This document shows, one piece after another, positions 53,976-61,933 of a stretch of DNA of 64,000 nt. The stretch's first letter is position 1. Each line of letters starts with the position of its first letter. The DNA lies in NCBI GenBank assembly GCA_047601445.1, contig JASGJH010000001.1, positions 5,760,001 through 5,824,000 of the forward strand. The letters are read 5' to 3'. Source of the stretch: Myxococcales bacterium (lineage in GTDB: Bacteria; Myxococcota_A; Polyangia; Polyangiales; DASUME01). The notes beneath the pieces were generated by a model, which was not told the origin of the DNA, did not search any database, and saw nothing but the letters and a program-made list of their open reading frames with translations. The position numbers and the translations under genes were made by a program.

Positions 53976-55493
53976 TCAGGCCTTCAAGAATGGGACGATC
54001 TTGCTGGCATCGGTGCGCAGTCGATCGGGCCACATCGTCTTGGGATCGCCGTAGGAGTTGTCCGTGAACTGGGAGCCGTAACCCTTGAGGCCGCCCGACT
54101 CGAATTCGCTCGCAGGCACGCCCATGGCTTGGAGCACGGTGGCGAGCCACTGGTTGTAGAGCAGGCCCGCGAACTGGTCGCGCCACTTGCGGTTGGAGTT
54201 CACCGCGCGGTAGTCGACGTAGTTGCCCGTCTTGAGGAAGCCGGCGGCGCCACCCGCGGTGACGAGGGGCAGACCCACCGGATCGTGGGTGCTCTCGCCG
54301 GACTCCTGGGTCCACATCATGAGGGTATTGTCGAGGTAGGTCTTGCCGTCGGCTTCTTCCACGTTGAGCTTGTTGGCCAGATCCAGGAACACGTTCTCGA
54401 AGATGTGCTGGTACGAGGCCACGAGCAGCGCTTGCTTGTCGGGGTTGGTGGCCTGGTGGGCCACGTCCTGATGCCAGTCGCCGTTGAAGGCGGTCCAGAG
54501 CTCCATCGTGTACATGGTGCAGATGCGCGAGGTGCCACACATGAAGGCCGCGGCGATCACGTCGTTGAACACGTCGTAGAACTGCGTGCTGCCCGCGACG
54601 TTGGTGGAGTTGTTGCCGAAGCCCGAGGAGTTCTTGTCCACGCTGGTGCCGGGCGCCTGCACGTTGCTGCAGGAGGCCACGACGTTCACGCGGCGCTCGA
54701 GCTCGGAGAGGCGCGCCATGTGGTCGTCCAGGCGCTGCTTGTCCGCGGCCGACAGCCGCTTGGCGTCACCGAAGGCGCCGTTGCGTAGCTGCTTGTAGTT
54801 GTCGAGCACGCGATCCACGACCGGCACGCGGGCGCTCGTGGTGGTGGTGGGCGGCACGAAGATGCTGTCGAACAGCTCCTTGGAGCTGAAGCTGGTGGGC
54901 ATCGACTGCACGCTGCCCGACTTGGTCTGCGGGTTGGAGTAGTTCCACGAGATGCCATCGGTGGCGATGTGCATCGAGCGCTGCTTGATGCTGCTCAGGT
55001 TGCTGTAGAAGGAGGGCGACCAGGCCATCACCTGGTCGATGGTGGGGACGTAGTTGATCGGCGGGTTCTGGTCGGAGCGCCCGAAGTTGCCCAGATGGCC
55101 GCCCGTGTGGTGCGCGATGTAGAAGGGCAGGTCGAAGCCGCGGATCACGTTGATGCGCGACAGCACGCTAGACGAGAGGTTGGCGGACGCCGCGTTCAGG
55201 ATGTTCGAGAGCGAAGCCTTGCCGCCGCTGCTGCTGGTGGCGAGGTTGCCGCGCCGCACGGTGTGGTCCGAGTAGAGCGCCTGGCTCTCGGTGAGCAGCG
55301 AATCACTCGGAAAGAAGTTGGCTCCGGTAACAGCGCCGTGGGGACTCGTGATGGCCACGAACCTGGGTAGGGCCACGAAGCTCTGGGCCTTCGCGCTGGA
55401 AGGCAGGAGCGATGGCAACCACGGTAGTGCGAGGGCGAAACCGCCCGCGCCGCGCAGGAACTGACGTCGGCTGTGATTGGTGATGACGCTCAT
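53976..55493 (-). CDS. DUF1552-family Tat-exported protein
   Basis: SRRQFLRGAGG.AL.LP.L Tat signal; TIDQ; D..RLD.H...L.ELERR; LDNT. Confidence 0.88.
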   Translation of the reverse strand: MSVITNHSRRQFLRGAGGFALALPWLPSLLPSSAKAQSFVALPRFVAITSPHGAVTGANFFPSDSLLTESQALYSDHTVRRGNLATSSSGGKASLSNILNAASANLSSSVLSRINVIRGFDLPFYIAHHTGGHLGNFGRSDQNPPINYVPTIDQVMAWSPSFYSNLSSIKQRSMHIATDGISWNYSNPQTKSGSVQSMPTSFSSKELFDSIFVPPTTTTSARVPVVDRVLDNYKQLRNGAFGDAKRLSAADKQRLDDHMARLSELERRVNVVASCSNVQAPGTSVDKNSSGFGNNSTNVAGSTQFYDVFNDVIAAAFMCGTSRICTMYTMELWTAFNGDWHQDVAHQATNPDKQALLVASYQHIFENVFLDLANKLNVEEADGKTYLDNTLMMWTQESGESTHDPVGLPLVTAGGAAGFLKTGNYVDYRAVNSNRKWRDQFAGLLYNQWLATVLQAMGVPASEFESGGLKGYGSQFTDNSYGDPKTMWPDRLRTDASKIVPFLKA

Positions 55494-55676
55494 AGGGGGA
55501 ACGACCCTATCAGCCGAGCCTGGTGGTCGATACCCAGCCCACCAAAAACAACCCTTCTGGGTACCTAAACGAGCGCCTGTGCCCCGCTTCGCACGCTTTC
55601 GAACAAACCCAACGAGTCTAGGGCGGTGACCTACGCCGGCGCCAACGTGCTTGAAGCAGCGCTCGCATGGTGGGCT

Positions 55677-57527
55677 TCACTCCGCTTCCGCGCTGCGGCT
55701 ACGGAAGCTCGGCAACAGCGCCAGGCTGCGCAGCGCGTCGCGCACGCTGTGGCCGCCGGCGAGCTGGGCGCGCACTGCCTCGAGTGAGCAGCCGTCACGC
55801 GACTCGTCCTCCGCGCGCGATCCCGCAAAGCGGACCACTTGGCGCGCAAAGCAGGCCCCGACCTTGCCGCTCTCCGCCAGCATGTGCGCCAGATCCGTGG
55901 CGCCTTTGGACGAGCGCGTGTCGTCGGCCCAGACACGTGGCGTGCTGGCGGTGTCGAGCGTCAGTTGGGAAAGCAAGGCGCCGTCGGCCGCGTACACCGT
56001 CTGTGTCGAGCGCAGTCGCCCGAGTGCGTCGTAGTTCTCCGTGGCGAAGCCGAGTGCGTTCAGCTGGGTGCCGTGACAGCCATTGCAGGTGGTGCCCGGC
56101 TTCTGCGTGAGCGCCTCCACGACCTGGCGTGTGGTTCCGTTCGCCGTGGGCTCGGGCGCGACCAGGGCTGCGTTCGGGTCGGGCGTTCCCAGCTTGTCGC
56201 ACAACAAACGCTCGCGCAGGAACACGCCCTTCATGATGGGCCGCGTGTTTCCGCTGGCCGAGGACAACAGAGCCGCGCGCGTGATCAAGCCGGCGCGCTG
56301 CCCGTCGGGAAATCGCGGTGGCTCGTCGAGGCCGTTCCAGGTGGGGACGCCATAGATGGACGCCAGCTCTGCGCCACGGGCGAAGGAGTAGGGACTGAGC
56401 AGCCAGCCCTCGAGCGTGTCGGACGCGGCGAGCCCGTGGTACGCGAATGAATCGGCCACCTCCGCCAGCATGTCTTCGCGCAGGGTGCCGCTCGGCAGGT
56501 TGGTGCCGGCGAACGCCTTGTAGCGCGGATCGTCGTGCAACACGTCGAGGGGCGTCAGGTAGTCCACGTTCAGCCACTCCCGGGCGAAGCTGCGCAGTCC
56601 CTGCTCGGCACGGGGGTCCCCGAGCATGCGATCGACGGTGGCCACGAAGCCGGTCTCGTCGTCGAGCTCGCCGCGCTCGGCCGCCAGCAGCAAGTCCTCG
56701 TCCGGGGTGCTCCGCCAAAGCTGAAACGAGAGGCGAGTCGCCAGCTCGTAGCGTGAGAGCGGCACGCTGGTTCCGGCGGGCGCTGGCGGGCCCACCTGCT
56801 GGACCTCGTAGAGGAACTGGGGCGAGTTCAGGAACACCACGATCAAGTCCGACAGCCCGTCTCGGTCCAGCACATCCGGCGACGCATAGACCTCGTGGAA
56901 GAACGCGGTCTCCTCGGCGCCGAGCGGATGGCGCAGCACCAGCCGGCCAAAGCGCGCGATGAAGCGGTCGATGCATGCATGGGGATCGCTGCAATCGCCG
57001 AGCAGCTGGTCCATGCGGGCGTCGTCGGCGCTGACCGCGGCGCCGATCTCGAGGCTCGCGTTGTAGTAGCCCTGCACGTGGGCATCGGACATCGCCTGAT
57101 CCATGCGCGCAAAAGGGGCGAACTTGGAGACCGAGTCCGTCGGTAGTGCACCGAGCGCGCTGCGTACCGCGGGGATCGCGAGGACCTCGTCCGCCAGGGC
57201 GCCGCCCGAGGTGCCCTCGAGGGCGAGATGCAGCGAGCTCACGTACTCGGCGCGCGAGAGTCGTCGCAAGGGTAGGTTGGCGCTCGGGCTGTCGGCATCG
57301 CAGCGAAACTCGAGTGCCGTCGCATGAGCCTGGAGATCGCCGGGTGTCTCGCCGGGTTCCACCTCGCCCTCATTCCAGGGACGATCATCGGTCTCGGAGA
57401 TGGGGCCTGCCGGTGCGAGCCGAGAATCGGCGCACGACGCACTGAGCAGGAGCGCCGCCGCGGCGCTGAGTGGCGAGAGCAAACATGGAAGGGAGCAGGA
57501 CAACCGTACGGGAGAGCGTGCGGGCAT
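55677..57527 (-). CDS. DUF1592/DUF1588/DUF1595/DUF1585 multidomain lipoprotein with CxxCH
   Basis: LRRLSR.EY, SP.FLY, ELA.RLS..LW...PD, R.GL.T, CNGCH, GFA.ENYDA.GR.R. Confidence 0.88.
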   Translation of the reverse strand: MPARSPVRLSCSLPCLLSPLSAAAALLLSASCADSRLAPAGPISETDDRPWNEGEVEPGETPGDLQAHATALEFRCDADSPSANLPLRRLSRAEYVSSLHLALEGTSGGALADEVLAIPAVRSALGALPTDSVSKFAPFARMDQAMSDAHVQGYYNASLEIGAAVSADDARMDQLLGDCSDPHACIDRFIARFGRLVLRHPLGAEETAFFHEVYASPDVLDRDGLSDLIVVFLNSPQFLYEVQQVGPPAPAGTSVPLSRYELATRLSFQLWRSTPDEDLLLAAERGELDDETGFVATVDRMLGDPRAEQGLRSFAREWLNVDYLTPLDVLHDDPRYKAFAGTNLPSGTLREDMLAEVADSFAYHGLAASDTLEGWLLSPYSFARGAELASIYGVPTWNGLDEPPRFPDGQRAGLITRAALLSSASGNTRPIMKGVFLRERLLCDKLGTPDPNAALVAPEPTANGTTRQVVEALTQKPGTTCNGCHGTQLNALGFATENYDALGRLRSTQTVYAADGALLSQLTLDTASTPRVWADDTRSSKGATDLAHMLAESGKVGACFARQVVRFAGSRAEDESRDGCSLEAVRAQLAGGHSVRDALRSLALLPSFRSRSAEAE

Positions 57528-57886
57528 CGGTGCTAAGGGTCGGCGCGCCGGTGCCCCGCGCGCCAACAAATTGATGACGCCCAGCAAACTTGCGGGTTTC
57601 ATGCGCGGTGGCGTGAGCGACGGGCTCACGTTCGAAGACTGGGGCCTCGCGCCGGTCGGAAGGGCACAAGGACTTGTCCTCTCGGAGGCGAGCGAGCCAG
57701 ATGGTGGGGCACCGGCACCTCGCGGAGTGCACCGCGATCGTGGTGCCCACACCTACATTCACCTCAAGGTCCTCCGCGTTCTCTGCGGGAAGCGAGTCGA
57801 CCCCAGAATCAGTTCACTCCTTAGGCGTCAGTGGCCTGGTTGTGTAACGCTACGGCCCGCGACCCCACACCACGCGAGGATCGACA

Positions 57887-58885
57887 ATGAGTTCAAGGCA
57901 GCTTGGCTGGCTCTTAGGTAGTTCTCTGTTGTTTTCATTGGCGGCGTGCGACGTCAGCGTCGGCAAGTGCGATGAGGACGCGGGCTGTTTCGACGGCTTC
58001 GGTGACGGAGACGGTGATGGCGACGGCGACGGAGACGGCGGCCAGATGGACGGCGGCCACACGGGCGACGGCGGCCATAACCCGGGTGATGGCGGAAGTA
58101 AGGATGGGGGCCCGAGTGGCGGGGACGCGGGCACGGACGCCGGCGACATGTTTACTGGCGACCCGCTCACGCTGAGCCAGTTCTGTGAGGCGTATCAAGG
58201 ACGTCGCGTGCAGTGGGCCACGGCACTCGAGGACTGCTGCATGGGCGACCCCGAAGCGAACGGCGCGAACGCCACGACGATTCTCAACTTGTTTGGCCCG
58301 GATGACGGCGCCAACGTCTGTATCAACAAGCATCAGCCTTTCATCACGGACGGCAGCGTGGTCTTCCACGCGGACAAAGCCGGTGCCTGTGCCGACGCCT
58401 TCCTAGCTCAATACGCCACCCCGCCCGCGACCTGTCCGCCCGGTGGTTTCGATTCGGAGCTGCTGCGTGCGACCGTGGCCCATGGCTCGCAGTTGATTCA
58501 GCAGATCCCAGCCTGCCGCGCGGCACTCGAAGGCAAGGTGGCCGAGGGCAGCCCGTGCAGTGACTCCATCCAGTGCGCTGGCGGGAACCGCTGCTACCTG
58601 GGCAACGGCGCCCAGAACACCTGCCAAAAGCCCAAGGTCGCCAACGGCACCACGGGTGCGTGCGCCGATTCCTCGGCCATGTGCGCGGACGGCACCATCT
58701 GCGTCGGCAACAACGACAGCACTCGTTTCTGCGCCAAGGTCGCGGAGCTCAACCAGACCATCAGTTGCTCGAACTCCCGTGAGTGCGGCGCCAACTCGCT
58801 GTGCTCGGTGGAGAACGTCAAGATCGGCGGCACGTGCACCGCGTACAGCGCGGCCAACCACGCCGACGACGTCTGCGCTCCCTGA
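57887..58885 (+). CDS. Cys-rich lipoprotein
   Basis: SLAAC lipobox; (GD)n and DGG linker; Dickkopf-like 'G.PC....QC..G..C' modules. Confidence 0.82.
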   Translation: MSSRQLGWLLGSSLLFSLAACDVSVGKCDEDAGCFDGFGDGDGDGDGDGDGGQMDGGHTGDGGHNPGDGGSKDGGPSGGDAGTDAGDMFTGDPLTLSQFCEAYQGRRVQWATALEDCCMGDPEANGANATTILNLFGPDDGANVCINKHQPFITDGSVVFHADKAGACADAFLAQYATPPATCPPGGFDSELLRATVAHGSQLIQQIPACRAALEGKVAEGSPCSDSIQCAGGNRCYLGNGAQNTCQKPKVANGTTGACADSSAMCADGTICVGNNDSTRFCAKVAELNQTISCSNSRECGANSLCSVENVKIGGTCTAYSAANHADDVCAP

Positions 58886-58924
58886 GCTCGACAGCCCTCG
58901 GGAAACGCCAGCTGAATCACGAGT

Positions 58925-58956
58925 GAGCCCGCCTGAGCGATCAGGTGGGCTCTTTC
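58925..58956 (+). terminator. Stem-loop terminator after the lipoprotein gene
   Basis: GAGCCCGCCTGA-gcga-TCAGGTGGGCTC followed by TTTC. Confidence 0.7.
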
Positions 58957-58977
58957 ACATTGCCAGATTGACGGAAT

Positions 58978-59067
58978 AAAAAAGGCAGCCAGGCGGGGGG
59001 GGGGATGCCAAGCTGCCTTGCGTACCGTCGAGCGGGGGGGTGCTCTTTATTGACGGGCACGCACGTC
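58978..59067 (-). ncRNA. Candidate sigma-54-dependent small RNA with two poly-C loops
   Basis: Intergenic; hairpin 59019-59063 with loop ACCCCCCC; terminator hairpin 58983-59018 with loop AUC10 followed by a U-tract; sigma-54 promoter directly upstream. Confidence 0.75.
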
Positions 59068-59076
59068 CTGAAACAA

Positions 59077-59092
59077 TGCGAGGAGCGTGCCA
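59077..59092 (-). promoter_or_regulatory. Sigma-54 (-24/-12) promoter
   Basis: TGGCACG-CTCC-TCGCA on the minus strand: GG-N10-GC spacing, one mismatch to TGGCACG-N4-TTGC. Confidence 0.75.
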
Positions 59093-59200
59093 GACACACA
59101 GCGCACGTGATCATGAAGCTTTTTCAAAATTGAATCGCCGAAGGTCCTTCGGGATTGCAATGCCTTGCAGGTCGGCGTTTCAAGTTTGCACGACTGCGCA

Positions 59201-61438
59201 TCACTCCGTACGTAAACTCACATGCTCGCCAAGGGGCAAATCCCAGGGTGCATCCGGATTCTCGAGGGCGTGATAGCGGCTGTAGGCCCCCAGCACCCGG
59301 CGCACGTAGTTTCGAGTTTGCTCCACCGAGATCCGCTCCACCCAGCTATCGAGCTCCACCTTGCCCGTGCCGACCGGCGGGGTGCGCTCTTCGTCTTCGG
59401 GCTCCTCGCCCGAAGCGGGTCGCTCGGTGGACTTGGACTTCTTGCCGGGCACGGCTCCCAGGGAGCTGTCGATACGCTGGGTACCGGCGTTGTAGGCGGC
59501 GATGGCCAGCGGGTACTGGCCGCGGTAGCGGGTGACGAGGCCCGAGAGGTAGCGGGCGCCGAGCGCGACGTTCACATAGGGGCGCATCAGCGAAGCCCGG
59601 TCGGCGGGAATCTTGAGGCCGGAGGCGACGGCCGCGGCAGTGCTGGGCAGGAGCTGCATGAGTCCGAGCGCGTCGGCACCCGAGACCGCGCGGGGCTTGT
59701 AGCGGCTCTCGACCTGCATGTGTCCATAGAAGAGGGCGCTCGGCAGGTCTTGTTGGGCCGTGCTCTCGGAAACGCTCGTGGCGTAGGGCCGGGGCAGCAA
59801 GGCCTCCCAGAGCCAACGTTCCGCGGGAGTCGGCGCGCGCGCGAGGATGTCCCCCATCAGAGGCTCGGCTGCCGAGTAGGTCTGGGCTGCATCTCCGGTC
59901 GCGCTCAGGGCTGCGATGCGGGCGTAGCGGTCGGGTTGTGTCTCGAGCCAGGCCTTGCCCGCTTCGGAAGCTTCCGCGTTGAGGCCGAGCGCGCGGTAGA
60001 ACATCACCTCCGGCGGCGGCGCGAGGGTGGGCATCGAGGGCAGCGGCGTGGTGGCGTCGAAGGCCTGCGGCGGCGGTTCGCCGAGTGCCACCAGTCGGCG
60101 GGCGGCTAGCTGGGCGTAGTAGCCGAGGCGATCTTTGCTCAAGGTCTCGGTGAAGGCCTGCTTGGCGCGCTTGGGATCGCGCCCGAGCAGCGCGGTGCGA
60201 CCTTGCCAGTAGCTCACGCGGGCGGCCCACAGGGGCTTGTCGGCCAGACGCGCGCATTCGTCGAGCCAGCGGGCGGCGTCGAGTGCATCGCCGCGCTCGA
60301 AGGCGAGCCAGGCCAGGTCCCAGGTGGCGTCGCGACGCAGACCGGGAGCGCGCTTGGCCTCATCGGAACTCACGAAGGTCTTGAGCGCGTCACGCGCCGA
60401 GGCCCGCTTCTCGCGCGCGCTGAGCCAGGCCGAGAGGTAGAGTGCGTCGGGCGTGAGCGAGCTCTTGGGGTACTTCTTGGCGTAGGCCCGGTAGCGCTTG
60501 ATGGCCTGGGCGTCCTTGCCGGCGCGCGAGGCGGAGCGGATCGCGTGGAACGCGTCGTAGGCTTCGGTGTCGCCCTCGAGCTTGGCCGCTTGCGCGAAGG
60601 CTCGCTCGGCCTCGGGGTAGCGCTTGCGCGTGCGGAAGAGCGCATCTCCGCGCAGGTGCCACAGGCGCGCGCGCAGCTTGGCTGGGGTCTGCTTATCGAG
60701 GGAGGCGAGCTCCTGGTGAGCAAGCTCGGGCTGGCGCGCTGCGAGCAGCTCCTCCGCGCGCCGCAGGTGTTCGTCCACGCTGAGGCGCAGCGGGCCGGCG
60801 CCTTCGAGCACGCTCAAGCAGTACTTGGCTTCGGCGTGGGCGGGGTGCTCGATGTAGAGCGCGTGCGCCAGCGGCAGGGCTTCGGCTTGGTTGCCGAGGG
60901 ACACCAGCGCGCGCACGCGCATGCCGCGCGACGAGGGATCCGTGGCGTCCGCCAGAAGCGTGGCAGCGCGCGCGAGGTCTCCTGCCGCATAGAGGCAGCG
61001 CCCCAGCAGGCGGGTGGCTTGTGTGCTCGCGCTGCTCTTGGGGGCGGCACTCTTGACCTCTTCCTCCAGGGCTGCGCAGCGCCCCGCGCCGGCGGCCCAC
61101 TGCACGCGCAGAGCGCGGACGTCGGCCTGGACCCGGGCGGGCCAGCTGTCGGGCGTACGCGGAAAGGTGTCGAGCGCTTGATCGGGCTTTCCGAGCTCGG
61201 CCAACGCGCGTGCGCGCAGGTAGCTGGCCTCGGGGGTGAGCGCAGAGGTCTCACTCGAGAGCAACGCCAGCACCTCCTCGTAGCGGCCGTCCGAGAGGGC
61301 TGCCACGGCCTCTGGCGGAACGAGCGGAGCGGCCGCGACGCGCGCGGGCCCTTCCGGGGCTCCGCGGCGCGAAACCGAAGGCCACCATGAAATGGCTGCA
61401 ATCAGGGCAAAACCAACGATTCGGGCGCGTGCTGGCAC
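59201..61438 (-). CDS. slt: Soluble lytic transglycosylase (TPR + SLT domain)
   Basis: Catalytic VES, GA.A.GLMQ..P, AAYNAG, EQTRNYV; N-terminal TPR superhelix. Start estimated at GTG 61438. Confidence 0.88.
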   Translation of the reverse strand: MPARARIVGFALIAAISWWPSVSRRGAPEGPARVAAAPLVPPEAVAALSDGRYEEVLALLSSETSALTPEASYLRARALAELGKPDQALDTFPRTPDSWPARVQADVRALRVQWAAGAGRCAALEEEVKSAAPKSSASTQATRLLGRCLYAAGDLARAATLLADATDPSSRGMRVRALVSLGNQAEALPLAHALYIEHPAHAEAKYCLSVLEGAGPLRLSVDEHLRRAEELLAARQPELAHQELASLDKQTPAKLRARLWHLRGDALFRTRKRYPEAERAFAQAAKLEGDTEAYDAFHAIRSASRAGKDAQAIKRYRAYAKKYPKSSLTPDALYLSAWLSAREKRASARDALKTFVSSDEAKRAPGLRRDATWDLAWLAFERGDALDAARWLDECARLADKPLWAARVSYWQGRTALLGRDPKRAKQAFTETLSKDRLGYYAQLAARRLVALGEPPPQAFDATTPLPSMPTLAPPPEVMFYRALGLNAEASEAGKAWLETQPDRYARIAALSATGDAAQTYSAAEPLMGDILARAPTPAERWLWEALLPRPYATSVSESTAQQDLPSALFYGHMQVESRYKPRAVSGADALGLMQLLPSTAAAVASGLKIPADRASLMRPYVNVALGARYLSGLVTRYRGQYPLAIAAYNAGTQRIDSSLGAVPGKKSKSTERPASGEEPEDEERTPPVGTGKVELDSWVERISVEQTRNYVRRVLGAYSRYHALENPDAPWDLPLGEHVSLRTE

Positions 61439-61471
61439 GGCTTTCTTCGATTGTCTATGCTGCGGCCCACC

Positions 61472-61933
61472 ATGCGCCACGAGCTGTCGTTGAGACTGGC
61501 ATCTTCCGCGAAACTTCGCACCGGTTTGCGCGCGCTCGCAGTGTCGATGGCGGTTCTCGCCGCGGCCGGCTGCGCGCCCAAGCTGGGCGACGGCTGCAAG
61601 CGCACCCAGGAGTGCTCGGTCAACGGGGATCGCACGTGCGACCAATCCCAACCCGGCGGCTACTGCACCATTCCCAATTGCTCTGGCGGTAGCTGTCCCG
61701 ACGACGGCGTGTGCGTCCGCTTCCAGCCCGACGAGCCACGCCTGTCACAGTCGTGGTGCATGGCTTCCTGCGACAACACCCGTGACTGCGATCGCGATCG
61801 CTACGTGTGCCGCACCGCCGCGCAGCTGAACCAACAGAGCACGGAGGACGTCACCGGCCAGACCCCCAAGGTGGCCGACGTCCTCGACGACAACGAGAGC
61901 CGCAAGTTCTGCGTCGTGGACAGCAAGGACTAG
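61472..61933 (+). CDS. Small Cys-rich lipoprotein
   Basis: LAAAGC lipobox; PGGYCT motif; many Cys. Confidence 0.8.
   Translation: MRHELSLRLASSAKLRTGLRALAVSMAVLAAAGCAPKLGDGCKRTQECSVNGDRTCDQSQPGGYCTIPNCSGGSCPDDGVCVRFQPDEPRLSQSWCMASCDNTRDCDRDRYVCRTAAQLNQQSTEDVTGQTPKVADVLDDNESRKFCVVDSKD

Follow-up and report, generated by a model that had tools for sequence, protein, structure and literature searches.

A predicted sigma-54-driven small RNA with C-run loops in Polyangia, probably a distant relative of Pxr

The predicted RNA gene behind slt

The window (the whole 64,000-nt stretch of DNA that was analysed, from a Myxococcales bacterium) carries on its minus strand a predicted small RNA gene of about 89 nt, here called copy a, at 58978..59066. 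It lies 135 nt behind slt (59201..61651, -), a gene for a TPR-containing soluble lytic transglycosylase (Pfam SLT, E 4.6e-23), which is a syntenic marker of copy a only and no part of the RNA. Downstream of the RNA there is a DUF1592/DUF1588 and DUF1552 (HXXSHH) gene pair (53976-57752, -). The convergent gene at 57887-58885, for a cysteine-rich lipoprotein-like product, gave no Pfam match, and the strong hairpin followed by T at 58925-58952 (+) is its likely terminator.

A sigma-54 (-24/-12) promoter occupies 59077..59092 (-), where the original prediction had placed it (59092-59077), and its TGGCA and GC are invariant in 17/17 aligned copies. In promoters of this type the GC constitutes positions -13/-12, and if GC 59079/59078 is taken in this way, the spacing would put +1 on A59066, at one edge of the 59066-59068 interval proposed earlier. 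The ViennaRNA fold of 58978-59068 (-39 kcal/mol, z -4.65; none of 200 shuffles reached this stability) agrees with the two abutting hairpins, C-rich loops and U-tract terminator that had been described. Stem-loop 1 (59019..59063, -) comprises 15 pairs with an internal bulge and a loop of A-C7 at 59034-59041, and stem-loop 2 (58983..59018, -), which is also the intrinsic terminator, presents an AU-C10 loop at 58995-59006 above a basal stem that is near-invariant within the genus. Six T at 58983-58978 end the minus-strand element. The U tract and a conserved tail, TT(T)CCGTC, together span 58970..58983 (-); the tail, which follows the U tract at 58970-58977 (-), is kept in 23/64 elements, is found in three families and could be a trimmed 3' extension.

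The claim that no credible ORF lies over the RNA also held, as none of at least 80 aa covers the element and one plus-strand shadow ORF ends at 58979. The Rfam scan of the whole window, in which the Pxr model RF01812 was included, returned nothing at gathering score anywhere in it, the best E over 58000-60000 being 1.3. A plus-strand sigma-70-like site at 59050-59077 was considered and set aside, being absent from the aligned copies.

The RNA family, its contexts and its covariation

BLAST matches to the RNA were obtained in 9/9 same-genus genomes, where the whole unit (promoter, C-loop hairpins and terminator) occurs in 2-4 copies per genome and in several gene contexts. All 17 of the 17 aligned copies, from 10 genomes, retain the promoter, the two C loops and the terminator stem, with variable spacer bases, and this pattern excludes chance. 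That the element is a real RNA gene is close to certain in our judgement, and very probably it is an uncatalogued sRNA gene.

The second copy in this genome, copy b (C1:6132628-6132750), has its own promoter and is divergent from its upstream gene. Whereas copy a is associated with slt, most b copies lie with ruvB and a cNMP-binding gene, some of them in tandem, and c copies with sspB and a Crp-family gene; a survey of 68 of 112 flanking ORFs revealed many other contexts besides these three. The c copies (L018, L108, L109, L112) precede the Crp/Fnr-family gene, mostly behind sspB, and tmRNA is present at L018 as well. In this genome, a Crp gene lies near C1:185652 and a third RNA copy was not found.

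Downstream of slt in relatives, where the RNA was expected to recur, it is present in 7/7 related slt loci with enough flank; covariation of stem 1 is seen among the b copies. The position of copy a, behind slt on the same strand, also invites the reading that the element is only the slt terminator or a 3' leader combined with a chance promoter-like sequence, in which case slt transcripts could end at the hairpin. The unit, however, recurs, complete with a promoter and an enhancer of its own, in unrelated gene contexts, as tandem pairs and, as copy b, pointing away from its upstream gene; stem 1 and the two C loops are likewise conserved. Because promoter and stem 1 are conserved, the latter with compensatory changes, this reading fails, and we give it next to no weight.

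The compensatory changes are clearest in the 13 b copies, in which eight pairs of stem 1 changed on both sides (0/500 shuffles); the terminator stem is invariant in the same copies and hence uninformative on pairing. For 36 diverse first hairpins, the covariation score was 0.354 vs 0.194 (0/500), and the number of double-change pairs was not above the null (203/500). In all these counts, kin are not independent.

A covariance model built from 17 copies (R1) matched 49/151 genomes of the order at E <=0.05. Another, built from b copies only (R2) and used for a search of the class, matched 2/151 genomes and missed the known members G036 and G071, which makes it too narrow to provide evidence of absence. 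Of 34 hits inspected outside the genus, 32 combine a sigma-54-like promoter with one or more C-loop hairpins, and a U tract ends most of them. Two candidate members were dropped: L115, which has no promoter, and L125, which has no clear C loop or U tract. The look-alikes belong to eight further families of the order and four families outside it. Individual RNAs contain one, two or three C-loop hairpins; in the f8 genomes of about 4 Mb (L090, L096, L118, L123, L124, L161, L162), a three-hairpin version has a C run in every loop. Across families, the RNA is invariant in two features only, its long stem and an exposed stretch of at least five C. The RNA belongs to a family of >60 divergent copies that is wide in myxobacteria and absent from Rfam. 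With close relatives assigned to Polyangiales or named Myxococcales bacterium, the predicted sigma-54-driven regulatory sRNA of a lineage other than Cystobacterineae is supported.

The upstream palindrome, the PxrR orthologue and the relation to Pxr

Two predicted enhancer sites resembling the palindrome TTKCA-N4-TGMAA precede the promoter of copy a. Site 1 (59178..59191, -; 9/10 match) lies about 98 nt before the promoter and is overlapped by an 8/10 palindrome at 59186-59199 (-), and site 2 (59147..59160, -; 8/10) lies closer, about 67 nt upstream of the promoter, with three helical turns between the two sites. An AT-rich stretch at 59122..59135 (-) also has a palindrome score of 9/10; its position is not conserved, and it may be due to chance or represent a DNA-bending segment. 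Across many RNA copies a site recurs at -96 to -99, the commonest position in the family is -65 to -68 (29 sites in the bin), and the sites cluster near -56, -66, -77, -88 and -98, that is, at a spacing of one helical turn. At 9/10 or better, the palindrome is found in 44 of 60 upstream regions as against 0.7 expected from shuffles, a count which omits two elements with short upstream sequence and which is circular for the 58 family members and independent for the two pxr loci. The palindrome had been defined on Polyangiales copies before any Pxr locus was fetched, and two perfect copies of it precede each of both true pxr genes.

Pxr, which gates fruiting-body development in Myxococcus by blocking it, is processed into long and short forms; among sRNAs that control multicellular development in bacteria it is the best known. 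According to the available text of PMC10217877, genetics showed PxrR to be essential for Pxr synthesis. The best PxrR match in this genome (C1:2163700-2165094) shares 52-53% identity with it, scores 406/434 bits vs 302/331 for the next protein, is the top match of the PxrR query over 251 genomes and has the receiver, sigma-54 AAA and HTH_8 domains. In a quick IQ-TREE analysis of 45 proteins (SH-aLRT, no bootstrap), both PxrR proteins, the protein of this genome and 11 orthologues constitute one clade with an SH-aLRT of 99, and 31 other enhancer-binding proteins of this genome fall outside it. The recognition helix, SSTTLWRKMKR, is identical in PxrR and in the orthologue of this genome. Orthologues at >=58% identity, set off by a score gap, are present in 31 of 121 genomes of the class. 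For PxrK and PxrA, this genome offers no full-length match that stands out as an orthologue.

Among 619 relaxed sigma-54-like sites in this genome, only three carry a perfect palindrome or two good ones, and these three promoters are those of RNA copy a, RNA copy b and the receiver-domain gene behind the PxrR orthologue. We infer from this match that the palindromes are the sites bound by the orthologue, which would then very likely be the activator that drives the RNA. The receiver-domain gene (C1:2162891-2163526) encodes a single receiver domain of 134 aa behind a sigma-54-like promoter with 10/10 and 9/10 palindromes. Over 47 orthologue loci, a palindrome of >=9/10 was found 3' of the gene in 15 and a following receiver gene in 14; the latter is likely conserved as a third output of the circuit or as its feedback component.

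The distribution of the RNA was compared with that of the activator using a model of the promoter and first hairpin (R3; 36 sequences, Pxr left out), which was applied to 21 genomes that encode the orthologue and to 19 without it. The RNA was found in 13 of the former, and of their 17 inspected best matches 12 proved to be true look-alikes, including 10 from three families that lie outside the order. In the genomes without the orthologue, none of the 13 inspected best matches was a look-alike, and the other six genomes gave E >=0.5 or no match. One fragmented genome (G001, 1580 contigs) has RNA copies, and the orthologue was not found in it at the cut-off used.

Copy a lies 3.6 Mb from the pxrR orthologue. 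In two genomes, G425 of another order and G011 of this order, the pxrR orthologue is followed, as at pxr, by a perfect palindrome, a sigma-54 promoter and a C7-loop hairpin; these are 2 of the 47 orthologue loci, and in the other 45 no RNA was found directly behind the gene. Both of these pxrR-linked RNAs are without a clean U tract, and the hairpin of G425 might represent the receiver gene's leader.

The RNA is not Pxr by the Rfam definition, for which we used a membership criterion of at least 80 bits. The model RF01812 scored 125 and 127 bits at two true pxr loci of one metagenome scan (L126, L127), each behind a pxrR gene; it gave no match at the RNA among the 150 of 1866 candidates scored in this genome, none at E 10 over 2 kb at the RNA and none at gathering score on 15 member loci. 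In the opposite direction, the two best R3 hits in 96 kb were the two pxr loci, at 27.1 and 22.6 bits (rough E values of 3e-4 and 2.7e-3), much of the score coming from the promoter and 23-27 bits being borderline at genome scale. The full two-hairpin model reached 11.3 bits on Pxr (E 0.57), 79 of 400 pair-shuffled (structure-keeping) null sequences scored as well as the stem-1 flanks did against Pxr, and a GAAGG/CCUUC closure is present in 11/125 hairpins. The basal terminator stem resembles the Pxr stem with two paired transitions; its arm RGCYGCC, a pattern chosen after seeing both RNAs, is common to Pxr and occurs in 4 of the 495 terminator-like hairpins of this genome, two of which are these RNAs. 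Sequence similarity of the RNAs alone is no proof of descent from a Pxr ancestor.

Searches for Pxr itself in sampled genomes gave 0/101 and 0/28, in samples that apparently contain no Myxococcaceae and are silent on the range of Pxr, and a pattern search gave 15 matches spread over 14 of 301 genomes, none of which showed the layout of Pxr on visual inspection, again in a sample apparently without Myxococcaceae. Two side observations concern the form of Pxr-like hairpins and transcripts. In family f85 (L169, L170, L175), the terminator loop GGUU-C6-AC is near-identical to the Pxr SL1 apex, GGUU-C7-AC. At the two true pxr loci (L126 2099-2139, L127 3555-3595), promoter spacing would place the start some 13 nt upstream of the 5' end given in Rfam, and the annotated Pxr may thus already be 5'-processed.

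The original prediction left the choice between a remote Pxr relative and an independent analogue. In the latter case, the PxrR regulon would be ancient and C-loop RNAs would have arisen separately in Polyangia and Myxococcaceae, which fits the lack of significant similarity between stem 1 and Pxr, the lack of a RF01812 match and the simplicity of the C-loop hairpin, a design also present in other bacteria (RepG, cuckoo RNAs). It also fits the published origin of Pxr, placed at the base of, or within, Cystobacterineae in the available texts of PMC5684412, PMC5568312 and PMC8538405. Yet separate origins would require that the same loop arose independently at the same position behind the promoter, together with a matching terminator base and, in two cases, the same location behind pxrR. 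Moreover, stems turn over fast within the family, so that loss of stem similarity to Pxr is expected, and what can be expected as evidence is agreement in control, loop, layout and synteny. Separate origins therefore appear unlikely to us. The common enhancer, the orthologous activator and the pxr-like synteny in two genomes favour the remote relative: the RNA is probably a diverged, distant relative of Pxr, and we consider common descent of the two fairly likely.

By a somewhat bolder reading, which we still find rather likely, Pxr is one branch of an old multi-copy C-loop RNA family that, in a large part of the myxobacteria and with lineages of about 4 Mb genome size among them, is the main output of one conserved enhancer-binding protein, with TTKCA-N4-TGMAA as the PxrR site and the C run as the universal seed. 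Pxr has been cited as a case of recent and lineage-specific emergence, and neither its targets nor its activator site are well defined. The activator that Pxr and the present RNA family appear to have in common suggests that Pxr is much older than published, and more than 60 divergent copies reveal what selection keeps, namely the C run, the long stem, the promoter and the enhancer. For Myxococcus, the family yields testable predictions, the palindromes and G runs at the Pxr contact sites, and descent can be addressed by cross-complementation. It also raises the question of the role of the circuit in lineages where fruiting bodies may not be formed. In the titles and abstract openings within our search scope, outside which key primary Pxr papers fell, we found no report of such RNAs in Polyangia or of the PxrR site.

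Proposed mode of action and comparison with known systems

By analogy with Pxr, it is reasonably probable that the RNA acts by base pairing. The available text of PMC5684412 describes a C-to-A change at the fifth base of the Pxr SL1 loop that abolishes function without loss of the RNA, a change that would split the C7 run of the true pxr loci, and a preprint legend (bioRxiv 10.1101/2025.09.11.675593) reports Pxr binding near the Shine-Dalgarno (SD) sequence of multiple mRNAs. In this genome, Hfq was not found (controls positive) and neither was CsrA (control positive in 3/14 genomes). The invariant C loop, the Pxr loop mutant, the Pxr-SD contacts and the lack of Hfq and CsrA matches together favour Hfq-independent pairing with G-rich ribosome-binding sites. 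A run of at least five G is found at the SD position of 187/7357 predicted genes, which constitute a candidate pool and not a target list, and in 86 genes a stretch of at least six G lies close to the start. Across the gene calls, G runs are most frequent at the SD position; the start scorer slightly rewards GGGG. At the start of the Crp-family gene that follows the c copies there is no G run.

Taken as a whole, the explanation that we favour, at somewhat better than even odds, is a trans-acting small RNA of the same ancestry as Pxr whose C loops pair with G-rich ribosome-binding sites. Its starting point can be read in the DNA: a gene that has a sigma-54 promoter to itself, with phased palindromes ahead of it, and that encodes C-loop hairpins and ends in a terminator. 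The phosphorylated PxrR orthologue would then bind the palindromes and fire copy a, copy b and the receiver-domain gene, as the regulon strongly suggests. If the RNA behaves like Pxr, its exposed C5-C13 loops would seed Hfq-independent pairing with G-rich ribosome-binding sites and lower the translation of many mRNAs, with two loops and several gene copies raising dose and avidity. Most tentatively, the output, as for Pxr, probably links nutrient state to the growth-versus-starvation programme.

The same gene and activator would also be compatible with a protein sponge, whose repeated C loops titrate a C-run-binding protein instead of pairing with mRNAs. In CsrB, RsmY, RsmZ and CrcZ, a loop motif repeated on hairpins titrates a protein, the copies are redundant and transcription is activator-dependent; two-component or sigma-54 input is typical of sponge RNAs. 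The C-loop RNAs fit this type in their input, in having one to three interchangeable C loops per RNA and tandem as well as dispersed copies, and in a C-run length that varies from 5 to 13, even among orthologues, on stems that covary freely. Set against this are the Pxr contacts near the SD of multiple mRNAs in the preprint legend, the peak of G runs at the SD position (with the slight reward for GGGG noted above) and the proteins themselves, as no candidate C-run-binding protein was found and neither CsrA nor Hfq was found in this genome. A sponge is in our estimate rather unlikely, and pairing with mRNAs remains the preferred reading.

Compared with known systems, the RNA resembles CsrB, RsmY, RsmZ and CrcZ in its hairpin-borne repeated loops, redundant copies and predicted activator-dependent transcription, but CsrB and RsmZ have GGA loops and CsrA as a partner, whereas the loops here are C runs and CsrA was not found in this genome. 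RepG of Helicobacter, the cuckoo family of Alphaproteobacteria, B11 of mycobacteria and RNAIII of Staphylococcus use C-rich loops to pair with G-rich leaders without Hfq. They have the exposed C-rich loops in common with the present RNA, which differs from them in its sigma-54 control, in the lack of an Rfam match to any of them and in having loops that are pure C runs and not the anti-SD CCUCC motif.

The closest comparison is with Pxr. In Pxr there are three stem-loops, the last with a conserved 8-bp segment in its stem; the short middle hairpin SL2 is absent here, and two Cystobacter Pxr paralogues are described in the available text of PMC5568312 as having two stem-loops only. Here, unlike in Pxr, the terminator loop is a second C run, the stem-1 sequence is unrelated at the level tested and the RNA falls below any Rfam threshold. 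Further, pxr sits in pxrK-pxrR-pxr, whereas the family RNAs are mostly unlinked to pxrR, have 2-4 copies per genome in this genus and belong to a different order and class. Both RNAs have, by sequence match, a sigma-54 promoter directly upstream, the same upstream palindrome with an orthologous, here predicted, activator (PxrR/Nla19/SpdR), a long first hairpin with a C7 loop (U-C7 in Pxr, A-C7 here), a GC-rich terminator with a similar basal stem, a host without Hfq and tandem paralogues.
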